DNA of 64,000 nucleotides. Origin: Escherichia phage Turkey3. Below the pieces are notes generated by a model. It saw nothing but the letters and a program-made list of their open reading frames with translations. It did not search any database and was not told the DNA's origin. The translations under genes were made by a program, and so were the position numbers. The stretch lies in sequence record PQ471515.1. One strand, given 5' to 3'. Shown here in pieces: positions 10,857 to 20,864 of the stretch. Each line of letters begins with the position of its first letter. The first letter of the stretch is position 1.

Positions 10857-13800
10857 TTATTTAACTTCTAATAGATTTTTAATGTCATTACCACTTATTT
10901 GCAAACTATCGGAGTAAACAGATAGTTCGATTGGATAACTGTTAACACTATAACGTTTTAGTAAATTAACTTTACCTAAGTTCAAGCCATTAAATGAATA
11001 TGTCACATTCTCTTTAAAGTCGTGTTCTGCACTATACATTACCCCACGGAGTAAGTTATTTGCAAAACGTACTTCAACTTTTTCAAAACCAAGAGAAATA
11101 ATATCATTCATACTTGCACCAGCACCAGATAGAACATTATTAGTAACACTATATGGGCTAACCGAATCTGGTTGTGAAACATAAGTAGTATTTTCTTCAC
11201 TGATAGCAGTAATGTTAGTTACTGTTCCACCAACTACACCAATATATGTATCACTAACTAGTGGATATGCATATTCCCATACCCCTTCAGCATTCAATAC
11301 TGGTTGAATAATACCAACATCATACTCGAACACGTTAATTTCCACACTATCAGTCATTTTGGTTCTCACTAACTCACTAAGAACACCTGCACCAGTAATT
11401 GGTAAGTTATATCCGTTATCAATGGTAACACCATCAACTTCAAATATCTCGTTAGACACTACCCAAACATCAACGTCATCTGGTGTAATTCCATCATTAT
11501 AAGAACCACCGTATAGTGTTGTGTCGTAGAATACTTCATAGTTCATTGCGTCGATAGCATAGTTTCTATTTGTTTCATACAACTTAACACCATCAACCAA
11601 GAATTCTGGATCAGCAAAGGTTCTAATACGAACGATGTTCAATGCTAGAGGTATTGCTGGTTCATTCTGTTGTTGTTTAGTGATGTTATCATAACGAAGT
11701 ACAACTCCAGTACTATCTAGTAGTTCTACAGTTCCGTTCGCAGTGTTTCTTACTGTGTACAAGGTTGGTGTGGTGTCAGTTTTGATTTTTGATACACTCA
11801 AGATGGTTTCCCATGCATTGTTTTGGTATCTCACATAATCTTCACCATCAGTTGTGAATATCATAACCTTATCACCATCAGATAGGGTATTGTCAATTAC
11901 TTCAGCTTCTGTATCACTAACAATTGATTTAATTTTATAGAAGTATTTTTCATCATACTTACTGTATGATTTACTAATATCATTTTCAATCTTAGCGTAA
12001 GAAGGAATACTAACAATTGCTTCTGTTGTTTTATAAGGGTTGATGATAACCATACCTTCAGTTTTATATCTACTATTGTCTCTCAATTGAACTAGTGAAA
12101 CACTATTGAATCCATAACCATCAACTGTGAAGCGAATCTGACCAATCTTTCTTCCTGATGGGTTAATATCAGAAATGTCGATTATGTACGGATCTACTTC
12201 GTCACCTTCAACTTCCCATTTTAACTCGGAAGTTTGTGATTCAAGTGCTAGGTTATCAAATGCATTCATATCATCGTAGTACTTAGCATCGGTGATGCTA
12301 TCTAGGATGTGCTGATAATCACTGTACATTGGGTTATTTCTATCAAGAGGTAAGTCATCAAGATTTATTTCTGCCAATTGAACTAGTTGACCGTCAGTTA
12401 TGAATTTGTCTTCCATGAAATCATCAATGCTTTGGTCATCTGGGATACTCTCGTATACACCATTAACATTAACATAAACATATTTTCGTGGCATCATAGT
12501 AAATGCATGAATATCAATAGGCATTCTACTTAGTATTTCTTCAGCCTTTTCATAATGGTCGGTAGCATCTTTGTCATACAAACCACGCATACCAGACAAT
12601 ACATGAATTGCGTCATTGTAGAATCGTTGATTTCCATCTTCATCTACATGGCGATATGAATAAACACCATATTCAACTTCAAGTATAATTCTAACTTCAT
12701 CATCAGTTGCAGTAGTATTGTTTTCTTTAATTAAAGAAACATACTTTTTATACAACTCACTACTAACTTCAAAGTAACCAAAGTTATAATCAGTACTGGA
12801 TGCATAACCAAACGGTAGTCTGGTGCTTGGATTATCATCATAGGTTAACCCACTAAATCCACATCCAACCTCATCATGAATTACTTCATCATCTGCACCT
12901 GTGTACAATTTCAAACGGTTAGAGAGTGTGTTATACTGAACGTAATGATTTACGTCATTAAACATTTCATTTTGTGTTGATTCTTTATATACACGATTCA
13001 ACGTTTCTGTGAATTCTGCGGTTGCTACCAAATCATCTGCATGGTCTGCATACCATTGGTTAACACCGTAAGCAATCCCTAGAGTTACGTTCAATTCTGG
13101 GTAATACAATTGCATCTGATAAGCAACCAATAGGTCGAAATCTTCATCACTGTATTCTGGGAATGTATATTTGTAACGTTGTAATTCAAAATTACTAACA
13201 ACATCTTGTGCATTAGATTGATATTTCTTATTCACTTCTTCCAATACATCAACACTTGCCAAATTATCATTTGGTTTACATTGAGTGTTGTCGTAGTGCA
13301 TGATAACATCAATTTCTTGGAAACGGCGATTAGGTGTTACGAAATCACTTGGCAATTCACCAACTTGCTCCCAACGTTGAGTTACCTCATTGAATTGAGC
13401 ATATTCATAATCCCAAATGTCTTTTTCCGTTTTAACCCAAGTCCCATCTGCAAATATATAGCCATTAGGATCTAAATCATTACACAAACCTTTAATTAAA
13501 TCATCATCTGAAGTTTTCTGTTCGATCTGGGAACGAATCTTAGTTCTATATGGTTTAACTTCTTCAAAGTACTCAACGATTTGATTAATCAAGTTGTCGT
13601 TGGAATAGTTCTGTACTAATGATTGTTCTAAACCTACAATATAAATGTAAGATGTTTTGAATACCCAATCAACAACGCTTTGTTCTACGTGAACATACTT
13701 AACCATATCAAACACAATTTCACTCTGATGTAAGTCGAATGAGTTCTTCAATAAAGCTAGTGCTTTACGAACGTTAATCTCACGATTACTCAACGAACCA

Positions 13801-16800
13801 TTAGCATCACGAACTGTATAGTCAGCGTATAACATATCATTCAATTCAACTGTACTATTTTCACGACCAATTGCTTTCCAGTAAACTGAATCACGTGATT
13901 GTGCTTTAATGTACAATGTCCAGATGCCATCAACATCTGTAATTCTGATAATGTCACCAACTTGATAGTTCTTAGTGTTTGCATCTTCTAGGCTGGATTC
14001 TTGTGTATATGCAGTATTTTTATCGTAACCAATATCATACCAATCTGCTAGTGACCAGTACTGGGTCATGTCCAATGAAGTTCCTAGTGCTTCAACATAG
14101 TCTGATTGTTTAATCATTTTCTGTTGACCTTCACCACGGTTTTCCAATGTAATGGTAACCACACTACCAGCACTTGATGGACTATTCATTAGATGAATAT
14201 AACCATTAGCATCAATATGCACAAAATATACAGAGCTAGTTGATAGTGGGTTAGGTAATACACCACTAGTACTTACTAGTACTGCGTCGTTTTCTTTGAA
14301 CTTGTCACTTTCAGGTGCAATGACTAATTCACTATTGTAAGTTAGTACACGATATGATACTTCATTCGGGTTAACTTCAGTAGTTTTAACATTAAACACT
14401 TCGTCCATTAGAACAGTGTTAGTTGTTATATTCTGTGAGCGATAATAGTTATTTGCACTTTCTACAAAGTTTCTACGAGCTTCAATTACATCTTGGAACC
14501 AAGTCTTATTAGAACCTAAACCGTTTGGTACTAAAGGATATAGTAAATCAATAACAGTTCCTGATTCAGTAGTTTCTTGACCAATCATAGAATTCCACAT
14601 AGAAGTCCAGATTGATGGATTGAAGTTATAGCTATCACCTTCTTTACATAATTGATACTGGTCATGTTTAATAACTTCAGTATTATCCATGTAATAAGAA
14701 ACAGTTAAAATACTTGTGTCATCGTTGACTTCAAATTGCATATTACTTAGAATGAACGAGCTTTCATTGATTGGTGCAAACCAAGGAATGTTAAGCTGTG
14801 CTGGTTCTTTAATAATACGAGCAATATCAGTACAAGATTTAGTTCTGGAATGCAATGGTGGTACATAGATTGTATCACGAACCCAGAAATAGTATTTTGT
14901 AACATAAGTATCAGTTGTGCTATCATATTCTAAGAACGTACTATAATTATCTTCCAATGCGGTTCCGCTTGGTAGGTACATAGTGTTGTTTTTATTTTTG
15001 TTAGCAACGTCTTTGCAGTATTTGTCCCAGTTATATGGTTCAACTGGTGAACATACCCATTCAAGAACATCAACAGTACTGTGCGGTAGCAATCTGCCCC
15101 AGTTATAACGTTTATATTCATTTGTTGCATCAACATCCACATTACCATCAGCATCATAGATTGCACGAGTGTAATCTAAGTAGAAAGCAGTGCTGGTGTT
15201 CCACCAAACCTGACCAACTTTATCAGCACCCCATGCTTGAATCAATTCACCATTGCTGTTGTATTGTGCTGGGTCAACTGGAGATGTGTAGGTAACGTTC
15301 TGCATCGCTGCACCAGGAATAACACCGTTGATTGGGTCAAACACGTTTAGGTACAACGCAGTAATGTTAGTACGTTCATCATATGTGGTTGGGCGGTCAA
15401 ACAAAGTACTTTGTGGAGCTTTAAAACTATATTTTCTGTCAATGTATTCCTGACGCATCTCTTCAGTACTGAATCGTGAAACATAACGATACAAGCGTGG
15501 GCGAGTATCAGGATCAGTGAAGTCAATAGTTATTGAAGTGTCAAACGGAACTACCATAACTCTAGGGTCATTACCCGCAGTATAATATTGACTTTCTATA
15601 GTCAATGTATCTGGCATAAAGTTAGTTTCATCAACAAAGTAATAATAATCACCATCATTTAGTGGGATATCATCACTTAGAGTTACTTTACAGAATTGTT
15701 CTGCATATACATCGGTATTTTCAATTGGAACGATAGAGAGCATCTCAACTTCAGTGTCTACTAGTTCGAAAATATTCCACAAATCATTACCATCTTTAAA
15801 CATCCATACAGAATCTGGTATTTCACCACTGTTATTCATATAATTGATACGATCATTATATGCAGTACTGAAATCTTTAGTAACGTATGAAATTTCATCT
15901 AGTGTTACAGGACCAATGTCTGGAAGTTGGATATTCTCACTTCTTCCACTACGCATTGGGAATGAAAACTTACCATTTGGACGAGTAATCCAGCGTGAGT
16001 CAACCCCTTGTTCACCGTAATAAACAATACCATTACCAGTACCATTTGATGTAGCATTAACATCAAACGAAACCATCTGTGGTTGTTGTTTAAATTGGTC
16101 ATTGATCAGTTTAAATTGTAGATTTTTCTTACCATTGATATTACCATAAGTACCAATCTTAAATGCCCATTCCTGAAGTGCTTTATATTCATCAGTGTCG
16201 TAAGATTTAGAAACGCGTAGTACTTTTTCCATTACTTGGTTAGTACCTTTGTCATGAATGAATCCTTTATAGAAATCAACACGACTAACATCACTACTAA
16301 TCATACGTTGTAGATAATCACGAGTTTGATAGCCAATCAAGTGATTTGATAACTCTTGAAGCTGAACATCACTCACAGGAGTTTCACTATTATAATATAA
16401 TTCAAAATCAGTTACTAATTTTTCAAATGATGGTAAAGTTCCTGCTTCTAGGATAATGAAACCAGGTGCTTGTAGGCGACCAGTCCATGACCCAGTAATG
16501 TAACCATACATTTTAATCAATTCTTGAATAGCACCATAAGTTGGTTGGTAAATGTAATCACCAAAGATAGTTTTATCATCAAAAACAACTGCGTGTTCAT
16601 ATGAACTTAGGCTCAAACGAATCAACGCCATACGTTTTTGTGATTCAGATGTAGTTCTCACTGTGAATACGTTACCGATACGCGAAGTTTCGATTTCATA
16701 TTGACGGATACCTTGGTTTTCATCATCGAGTAGTGACCAAACACCACCACTATTCTGTGTAACAGATTGAACTGAACCAAAATCCGCACCAAATTTAGCA

Positions 16801-20828: not shown

Positions 20829-20864
20829 TTTTGGACTCCATATAATTCGTTCATTCATTTGATT

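Follow-up and report, generated by a model that had tools for sequence, protein, structure and literature searches.

The Locus

The 64-kb stretch of DNA analyzed here (the window) is from an Asteriusvirus-like jumbo coliphage with 36% GC. The ORF listing and translation place a single minus-strand frame at 10857..20858, with an ATG start and 3,333 codons (the mechanical ORF). This frame is a genuine, unbroken gene that codes for a virion protein of 380 kDa. At this GC content about 0.07 stops per codon are expected, so by our calculation 3,333 codons would stay open by chance with a probability of about e^-240. The initial annotation described an uninterrupted 10 kb frame directly 3' of a gp6-like wedge gene, far larger than its T4 counterparts, with antisense shadow ORFs. 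All of this stands: no T4 baseplate protein comes near 380 kDa, and the ORFs overlapping the gene in other frames are all of 93 aa or less. The main features of the locus are as follows.

3358..3966, plus strand: phrog_11259 protein, 202 aa; a conserved partner gene, relocated in the window
10829..10854: bidirectional terminator-like hairpin, 11–12 bp stem, common to the giant gene and a convergent ClpA-like gene
10857–10859, minus strand: stop codon of the giant gene
10857..20828, minus strand: giant virion/baseplate protein gene with the start corrected (probable); 3,323 aa, 380.5 kDa, pI 4.5
20836..20839, minus strand: GGAG Shine–Dalgarno sequence, 7 nt 5' of the ATG at 20828
20865..20872, minus strand: CATAAATA, a T4-type late-promoter-like box, 36 nt 5' of the ATG at 20828
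20881..20902, minus strand: terminator-like hairpin at the gp6-like/giant junction; 9 bp stem, TTCG loop, T-run
20909..24370, minus strand: gp6-like baseplate wedge protein, 1,153 aa (phrog_10646, E = 0; phrog_219, E = 3.5e-21)
24473..24868, minus strand: gp25-like wedge/sheath-initiator protein, 131 aa (phrog_43, 2.4e-15)

Translation probably begins at the second ATG (20828), ten codons inside the mechanical ORF, for a product of 3,323 aa. The first ATG, at 20858, is only 6 nt past the CATAAATA box and has no Shine–Dalgarno sequence. The second has one, and its distance from the box is like that of the window's other late genes. The 121Q annotation (gp582) begins at the equivalent ATG, and the phrog_10938 profile begins at residue 11 of the mechanical ORF, which is the same codon. 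These observations lead us to the second ATG. Residue numbers below are those of the mechanical ORF.

The window has nine [TC]ATAAATA boxes, each 17–64 nt 5' of a same-strand gene start, and it also encodes a gp55-like late sigma factor (31429..32370). The terminator and late-type box that had been noted ahead of the giant gene are both present, and both are kept in 121Q, where the stem of the hairpin is fully paired. With a hairpin and a promoter box between them, the gp6-like and giant genes are not translationally coupled in this window, which counts against the gp7-equivalent reading discussed below. In relatives, the gp6-like stop codon is often adjacent to, or overlapped by, the giant start.

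Integrity of the Reading Frame

Of the 34 phage records with coverage of 80% or more of the gene, most annotate an uninterrupted giant CDS. A few GenBank records break the region into 3–11 separate CDS, as they would if the long frame came from faulty assembly or from sequencing errors that had fused several genes. The probability of such an artefact is negligible, and we rule it out: dozens of independently sequenced genomes at 60–99% identity have the gene with equal length and frame, the 382 kDa product of phAPEC6 has been seen by mass spectrometry, and the records that split the gene are error-laden, their frameshifts coming from one-base deletions that are mostly in homopolymer runs. The CMSTMSU record, flagged UNVERIFIED, has 16 of these deletions, most in such runs. 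The lack of any internal disruption, first judged on this one sequence, is borne out in many genomes. Compared with 121Q, substitutions at the three codon positions number 383/215/1218, and a dN/dS of 0.08 for the whole gene and of 0.03–0.14 across all 250-codon windows indicates purifying selection along its entire length.

Family and Presence in Virions

This gene has been described before: the literature on Rak2-like phages (the RaK2/121Q group) calls it their "largest ORF", databases already list it, and orthologous products have already been seen in virions. The match to phrog_10938 ("virion structural protein") has E = 0 and 5,473 bits and runs over residues 11–3330 against positions 1–3324 of the 3,324 in the profile; by this match, the protein belongs to the phrog_10938/Rak2-like giant virion structural protein family. 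It is 82–86% identical to its counterparts in 121Q and phAPEC6 and 57% identical to that in CBB. The family comprises 848 or more clusters at 50% identity; most members have 3,000–7,300 aa and the longest 7,307 aa, and the 240 homologues all have five conserved blocks. Members are encoded by phages of enterobacteria, Pseudomonas, Agrobacterium, Xanthomonas and Vibrio, and are also found in marine and other metagenomic contigs.

Virion proteomics had been proposed as a check, and the literature answers it for two orthologues. By mass spectrometry, phAPEC6 gp245 (381.88 kDa) was detected in virions with 17 peptides and 7.6% coverage, and CBB_236 with 21 peptides and 7.7% coverage. In these two data sets, the peptides per kDa for the giant protein are about 2–3.6 times below those of the neighboring gp6-like protein, which is, as a crude indicator only, roughly what a 1:2 stoichiometry of giant to gp6-like protein predicts. 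We found no paper that gives the giant protein a function or structure, and the phage Tn-seq preprint concerns only phiKZ.

Protein Architecture

The five conserved blocks fall between residues ~40 and 2460, with variable inserts between them, and are followed by a lineage-specific C-terminal region of ~870 aa. All of the segments are on the minus strand.

20469..20828, minus strand: N-terminal segment, residues 11–130; mostly helical, monomer-model pLDDT 29–63
19434..20468, minus strand: block C1, residues 131–475; beta-rich, pLDDT mostly >84
17964..19133, minus strand: block C2, residues 576–965; mixed alpha/beta, with the near-invariant motif RPHTHPWEMLGFS
15759..17678, minus strand: block C3, residues 1061–1700; its first ~600 residues show the widest conservation
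14439..15383, minus strand: block C4, residues 1826–2140
13479..14108, minus strand: block C5, residues 2251–2460
10860..13478, minus strand: C-terminal region, residues 2461–3333; Rak2-like lineage only

Among Rak2-like phages, residues 11–130 are the best conserved (97/95/85/78% identity versus 89/82/79/72% for block C1). In XacN1, Xoo-sp13 and RAS14, residues ~814–1618 are the only part of the protein still detectable. The C-terminal region evolves fastest, yet remains under purifying selection by its dN/dS of 0.07–0.14, and it aligns over its full length among phages of Escherichia, Klebsiella, Salmonella, Pectobacterium, Cronobacter and Yersinia. Structure predictions for the segments N-terminal to block C5, made from alignments of 22 homologues and hence shallow, give beta-rich models with many compact mixed alpha/beta domains.

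Self-BLAST revealed no internal repeats. The whole protein had no Pfam match and seven segments of ~500 aa had none at E <= 5, the segments matched only their own family in PHROGs at E <= 0.5–1, and neither phmmer nor the family HMM found a match among PDB sequences. Normal-sized proteins bearing the N-terminal module were sought by phmmer with residues 11–475; each of the best 150 matches is a strong member of the family, and those that are short resemble contig-end fragments. In distant family members, a phrog_677 "tail fiber connector" domain (E = 6e-17) is inserted, and CBM/FG-GAP domains occur as well; both fit an exposed, peripheral location.

Relationship to gp7

The order gp25-like, gp6-like, giant is found in the window, 121Q, three very distant metagenomic relatives, Atu_ph07 and XacN1, and every relative whose neighborhood was examined has the giant gene right behind its gp25-like and gp6-like genes. 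The slot right after the gp6/J-like gene is held by gp7 in T4 and KVP40, gpI in P2 and gp48 in Mu, and by a member of this class in all contractile systems covered here or in the papers cited. By holding that slot, the giant gene is the positional equivalent of gp7 (P2 gpI, Mu gp48, TssG), and the baseplate module of the window contains no other recognizable gp7 candidate.

Homology searches did not connect the giant protein to that class. There was no match to the gp7 Pfam families PF21428, PF21427 and PF21456 even at E <= 5, and T4 gp6–gp12, gp53 and wac were matched neither by BLASTP nor by hhalign with windows of the family profile. When the family profile was aligned with a 25-member T4/KVP40 gp7 alignment, hhalign gave a probability of <1%. 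The same result against P2 gpI/gpJ and Mu gp47/gp48 is uninformative, as the gp6 control failed too. A single-sequence control of the gp6-like protein against T4 gp6 was likewise negative, which leaves single-sequence tests with little power here. No convincing fold similarity to the gp7 class was found.

The initial annotation was right to regard the frame as a genuine single gene of the baseplate module, but its suggestion of a fusion of T4-type gp7, gp8, gp10 and fibre proteins was not supported. BLASTP, profile–sequence and profile–profile comparisons gave no match to such proteins, the protein lacks repeats and fibre signatures, and the giant gene is not split into separate genes in any relative with annotation or gene calls examined. 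We reject a fusion of recognizable T4 wedge proteins.

Proposed Role in the Baseplate

We lean slightly toward the giant protein being a gp7 equivalent whose N-terminus is anchored to a (gp6)2 wedge and whose remainder builds the baseplate periphery and a fibre-docking platform. We infer its wedge location, copy number, gp6 binding and fibre binding. The anchor would be residues 11–130, by analogy to the wedge structures of A-1(L) and Pam3; in A-1(L), residues 1–107 of the gp7-like subunit take part in the wedge core bundle. That the segment is helical and modeled with low confidence as a monomer is as expected if it folds only in the bundle. In this proposal, the conserved helical ~120 residues would join two 1,153-aa gp6-like chains in a wedge heterotrimer, putting six giant copies in each virion. 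The five-block core of ~2,300 residues would form the outer baseplate, and an exposed surface docking the fibre anchors would come from the variable inserts together with the ~870 lineage-specific C-terminal residues. That surface may relay the attachment signal inward to sheath contraction.

Tentatively, we also suggest something broader. A single chain of 3,000–7,300 aa could be an independent solution to the whole outer baseplate, replacing the T4 gp7/gp8/gp9/gp10/gp11 periphery. It would be built largely of folds without solved relatives, be held to gp25/(gp6)2 by a short N-terminal tether, and take up fibre-connector and carbohydrate-binding inserts.

The partner gene listed above offers a different third subunit. 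The phrog_11259 protein, or another small protein, might complete the (gp6)2-X wedge, leaving the giant protein outside it as a peripheral replacement for the T4 gp8/gp9/gp10/gp11 layer and not a gp7. The partner gene comes right after the giant gene, on its 3' side, in L003, L004, L005, Atu_ph07 and Vibrio phage 2.275.O. At ~200 aa its product is like P2 gpI (176 aa) and Mu gp48 (180 aa) in size, it is far better conserved than the giant protein (78% versus 57% identity to CBB), and CBB annotates it as a structural protein. By size and gene order it probably corresponds to phAPEC6 gp251c (21.95 kDa) in the virion mass spectrometry table. The giant protein's lack of gp7 homology also speaks for this arrangement. 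We nevertheless consider it rather unlikely, since in the systems checked the gp7-like gene always comes directly after gp6, and that slot is taken by the giant gene. Furthermore, in the window the phrog_11259 gene is ~7 kb away on the opposite strand, its product has an N-terminus that is not obviously helical when the alignment is judged by eye, and comparison with Pfam, PDB sequences (by single sequence and profile) and T4, P2 and Mu proteins, including gpI, gp48 and gp7, returned nothing.

It is improbable that the giant protein is instead a tail fibre or tailspike, that is, a receptor-binding protein and not the baseplate body. The fibres of RaK2 consist of gp526–534 and gp098 according to the literature. 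The giant protein has neither internal repeats nor collar, S74-chaperone, beta-helix or other fibre signals in Pfam or PHROGs, its models show compact mixed alpha/beta domains and not an elongated trimer motif, and its C-terminal region aligns across host genera, unlike swapped receptor-binding domains. With the repetitive or trimeric modules (collar, beta-helix, S74, gp34–37-like) absent, we reject this assignment.

An internal or ejected protein encoded beside the baseplate genes, such as a tape-measure-like ruler or an envelope-spanning conduit, is more improbable still. Very large virion proteins of other phages are often internal, and the N4 vRNAP is one of them. Tape measure proteins are long and alpha-helical, and their genes lie between those for the tail chaperones and those for the hub. 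The literature mentions phiKZ gp181 among very large virion proteins, and mass spectrometry places the giant orthologues in the virion without saying where. However, the models are beta-rich and multidomain with no long tape-measure helices, and polymerase, lysozyme and membrane signatures are lacking. Its unvarying place beside gp6 across the lineages examined argues for a wedge role, and the CBM and fibre-connector inserts of relatives suggest an exposed position. A tape measure in particular is rejected on the beta-rich models and on a gene placed after gp6 rather than before the hub.

Significance and Comparison with Known Systems

The interest of the gene lies in how a jumbo myovirus baseplate might be organized around one 380 kDa non-repetitive chain with no detectable solved-structure relative. 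If the single-chain outer baseplate is real, it would be the largest known baseplate component and the hallmark gene of a very widespread environmental jumbo-phage clade. The branched fibres that set host range in RaK2-like therapeutic phages would probably dock on it as well. The gene is a handy marker for the clade.

The peripheral baseplate proteins gp87 and gp27 of phiKZ (PDB 9xqs, 9xqd) belong to another lineage (Chimalliviridae) and differ in being separate proteins of ~900–960 aa, with no sequence similarity to the giant protein. Among the closest systems are the N-terminal XD of CBA120 TSP4, which is T4 gp10-like, and the N-terminal adaptor domains of podovirus fibres; the giant protein has a weak XD-like domain match. 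The T4 gp7 class, with its named minimal equivalents (P2 gpI, Mu gp48, Pam3 gp23, A-1(L) gp32, TssG and the gp7-like part of Afp12/Pvc12/Alg12), differs in having members 3–18 times smaller (176–1,165 aa versus 3,323 aa) and in showing no sequence, profile or convincing fold similarity. It resembles the giant protein in its gene right after the gp6/J-like gene, in being a virion/baseplate component, and in a conserved helical N-terminus about as long as the segment that goes into the wedge core bundle. The variable outer parts of the giant protein also fit the picture of the gp7-like part as an evolutionary hotspot that binds fibres. Closest of all are the orthologues in Rak2-like jumbo phages (121Q gp582, phAPEC6 gp245, CBB_236, PA5oct gp128, Atu_ph07 gp180 and XacN1 ORF325), which share the position after the gp6-like gene and the size class. 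There is no essential difference from these, and the copy in the window is another member.

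The Giant Gene and Its Start

The 10 kb frame on the minus strand is a real gene, and it is already known, being listed in databases as a "virion structural protein" and having been found in virions. It lies in the following arrangement.

20909..24370, minus: gp6-like baseplate wedge gene, directly upstream of the giant gene (phrog_10646, E = 0; phrog_219, E = 3.5e-21)
20902-20881: terminator-like hairpin between the gp6-like gene and the giant frame
20872-20865: CATAAATA box between the gp6-like gene and the giant frame
10857..20858, minus: giant frame, 3,333 codons from an ATG start

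At the 36% GC of the window, we estimate the chance of a frame of this length staying open at about e^-240. The ORFs that overlap it in other frames are all of 93 aa or less, and the initial annotation was right to call them shadows. Its 10 kb ORF also stands as an observation, with the start codon corrected. The first ATG is 6 nt from the late box and has no Shine-Dalgarno (SD) sequence; the second, at 20828, has a GGAG SD and is 36 nt from the box. The 121Q annotation and the PHROG profile both start at the ATG equivalent to 20828. Because of the box spacing, the SD and these two starts, the product is most likely a protein of 3,323 aa, 380.5 kDa and pI 4.5.

The window comes from an Asteriusvirus-like jumbo coliphage, and the 10 kb region is 99.1-99.6% identical to WPEC5, Ecwhy_1, vB_Ec-M-J, fEgEco12 and others, and 82% identical to 121Q, PBECO4 and phAPEC6. 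Rather than being split by stops or frameshifts, the gene is of equal length and annotated as one CDS in nearly all related records. Substitutions relative to 121Q are distributed 383/215/1218 over the three codon positions, and dN/dS, 0.08 for the whole gene, stays between 0.03 and 0.14 across all 250-codon windows, those of the C-terminal part among them. The gene appears in pieces only in a few defective records. In CMSTMSU (GenBank MH494197, an Escherichia phage record marked UNVERIFIED), 16 one-base deletions, most of them in homopolymer runs, break it into 11 annotated CDS. The Salmonella phage records SD-1_S14 and SD-6_S16 show it as 3-4 CDS, probably from similar causes. Nor is the protein absent from virions: published mass spectrometry of purified virions detected the orthologues phAPEC6 gp245 (381.88 kDa, 17 peptides) and CBB_236 (21 peptides). 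The CBB authors anchored their genome comparisons on this gene as their "largest ORF", and the PA5oct orthologue, gp128, is among the two largest proteins of that phage and adjoins the wedge protein gp129.

Gene Neighborhood and Probable Late Promoters

The initial annotation had proposed a late gene in a baseplate position, directly following a gp6-like wedge gene, and both the position and the identity of that neighbor are borne out. Ahead of the gp6-like gene are a gp25-like gene, a free-standing lysozyme, a gp5-like hub/lysozyme and a gp53-like gene. As to late expression, the window contains no more copies of TATAAATA and CATAAATA than shuffled sequence does. The [TC]ATAAATA boxes (at 20865, 25390, 31435, 36089, 38049, 42041, 43935, 45144 and 54870) all sit 17-64 nt 5' of a same-strand gene start (9/9), and an SD precedes eight of those starts by the script criterion, the ninth having been judged by eye. 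The phage also has a gene for a gp55-like late sigma factor (31429..32370). Because of the box positions at SD-preceded starts and the presence of this sigma factor, we accept the CATAAATA box ahead of the giant gene as a T4-type late promoter element, and all nine boxes are likely T4-type late promoters. Accordingly, several mechanically called ORF starts would be too far upstream (e.g., TTG 38005 and TTG 31489).

Several other features of the module were observed. The free-standing lysozyme (24884..25372, minus, 162 aa) duplicates the C-terminal lysozyme domain of the gp5-like hub next to it, aligning to phrog_13211 positions 727-885 with E = 2.5e-63. The hub protein itself (25410..28073, minus) also matches M23 peptidases weakly. 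In 121Q, an HNH homing endonuclease gene (7721-8485 of the 121Q sequence) separates the gp25-like and gp6-like genes, whereas the corresponding interval of the window (24370-24473) is no more than a short intergenic stretch containing a hairpin. On the other side, a ClpA/ClpB-like double AAA+ protein (8511..10823, plus; AAA_2, E = 3.7e-49; ClpB_D2-small; AAA_lid_9) is encoded convergently to the giant gene, with a common bidirectional hairpin at 10829-10854. It lies inside the tail/baseplate module, in the slot occupied in distant relatives by the gene of a small protein, phrog_11259, and could conceivably be a chaperone that folds the 380 kDa protein.

Family, Architecture and Synteny

Among 5.8 billion proteins searched, 240 homologues were found, nearly all of them 3,100-5,600 aa long. 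An exhaustive search of 1.84 billion cluster representatives with residues 11-475 found 848 clusters at E <= 1e-3 and 643 at E <= 1e-10, with lengths up to 7,307 aa. The family is very widespread among environmental jumbo phages. Five conserved blocks (~40-475, 576-965, 1061-1700, 1826-2140 and 2251-2460) are present in all 120 listed members, with variable inserts between them; internal repeats were sought in the protein and none were found. The C-terminal ~870 residues are confined to the Rak2-like lineage. Among Rak2-like phages, residues 11-130 are the most conserved and the C-terminal region the least. That region can nonetheless be aligned full-length between phages of different host genera, which speaks against its being a receptor-binding domain of the swappable kind.

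The order gp25-like, gp6-like, giant is kept in every relative examined. These include three metagenomic contigs of very distant relatives, with one contig coming from Tara Oceans; Atu_ph07 (490 kb), in which the start of a 4,449-aa giant overlaps the gp6-like stop; and XacN1, with a giant of 3,313 aa. In none of these is the giant represented by separate genes. Marine and metagenomic members (contigs L003 and L005, both at 10001-12400; proteins P0078-P0120) bear inserted domains absent from the protein of the window. Distant members have a phrog_677 "baseplate wedge tail fiber protein connector" domain inserted after residue ~160 (E = 6e-17), a match revealed by segment scans and missed by hmmscan on whole proteins, as well as inserted CBM_5_12, FG-GAP_2 and Laminin_G_3 domains. 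Inteins and homing endonucleases (Hint/LAGLIDADG, GIY-YIG/NUMOD3) are dispersed in the baseplate/fiber modules of distant relatives (contig L004, 1-199; contig L005, 26547-28607; Atu_ph07, 25483-26196), and in Atu_ph07 one such element separates the giant gene from its phrog_11259 partner.

Similarity Searches and Structural Models

There is no evidence that the giant is a fusion of T4-type wedge or fiber proteins: T4 gp6-gp12 and the T4/KVP40 gp7 family profile show no similarity to it, its 500-aa segments match no Pfam family at a cutoff as loose as E <= 5, and the gp7 families PF21428, PF21427 and PF21456 are absent. P2 gpI and Mu gp48 also show no similarity, a comparison of little power since the gp6 control failed too. 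PHROGs gives only the protein's own family, and PDB sequences give no match with the single sequence or the family HMM. AlphaFold2 models built on an alignment of 22 diverse homologues have a mean pLDDT of 78.4 for residues 11-1065 and 69.0 for residues 1061-2260. Both are strings of compact domains, mostly beta or mixed. In the monomer model, the first ~120 residues are helical, with a pLDDT of 29-63. The ~2,250 modeled residues have no convincing PDB neighbor; the structural hits are compatible with a baseplate or fiber-docking role and are too weak to prove one. The available map of the phAPEC6 tail reaches only about 25 A.

Proposed Equivalence to the gp7-Like Wedge Subunit

The third, gp7-like subunit of the wedge heterotrimer is the product of the gene that follows gp6/J in T4, KVP40, P2 and Mu. 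In the published structures of Pam3 and A-1(L), this trimer comprises two gp6-like chains plus one gp7-like chain. In A-1(L), the gp7-like subunit contributes its N-terminal ~100 residues to the helical bundle, and the remainder of such subunits lies on the lateral surface, binds fibers and is a recognized hotspot of evolutionary elaboration.

One could instead suppose that the true bundle partner of gp6 is the phrog_11259 protein, since its size (~200 aa) is that of minimal gp7-like proteins, and that the giant is purely peripheral. The gene is found at these positions.

3358..3966, plus: window, 202 aa, on the opposite strand to the giant gene
23702-24310: contig L003
21654-22241: contig L004
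22937-23662: contig L005
26196-26792: Atu_ph07

It directly follows the giant gene in distant relatives, and the two adjoin in Vibrio phage 2.275.O (_423 and _424). This partner is deeply conserved, and far more strongly so than the giant (identity to CBB, 78% versus 57%; to 2.275.O, 50% versus 37%). It is annotated as structural in CBB, fits phAPEC6 gp251c (21.95 kDa, detected by mass spectrometry) by size and gene order, and has no detectable relative, in Pfam or PDB included. Gene order, however, favors the giant for the gp7 role; in the window, the phrog_11259 gene is displaced about 7 kb from the giant gene, on the other strand.

The giant is very probably a baseplate structural protein, and we lean toward its being specifically the gp7-equivalent wedge subunit. 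It would then match gp7 in position and function, be present in six copies per virion and be anchored by its N-terminus to the (gp6-like)2 dimer; the five-block core would build the outer baseplate, and the inserts and C-terminal region would serve as a docking surface for fiber anchors. In the long-fiber network of RaK2, the anchor domain of gp528 attaches to a baseplate receptor, for which the giant would be an obvious candidate. In the published virion mass spectrometry, peptides per kDa are about 2-3.6 times lower for the giant than for its gp6-like neighbor, which is crudely compatible with a 1:2 ratio.

The proposal is made because the giant resembles gp7-like subunits in its gene position after the gp6-like gene in all lineages examined, in an N-terminus that is conserved, helical and of suitable length, and in its variable periphery, and because distant members carry the phrog_677 and CBM_5_12/FG-GAP inserts. 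We read it as a baseplate protein in the gp7 position that has grown to 3-7 thousand residues.
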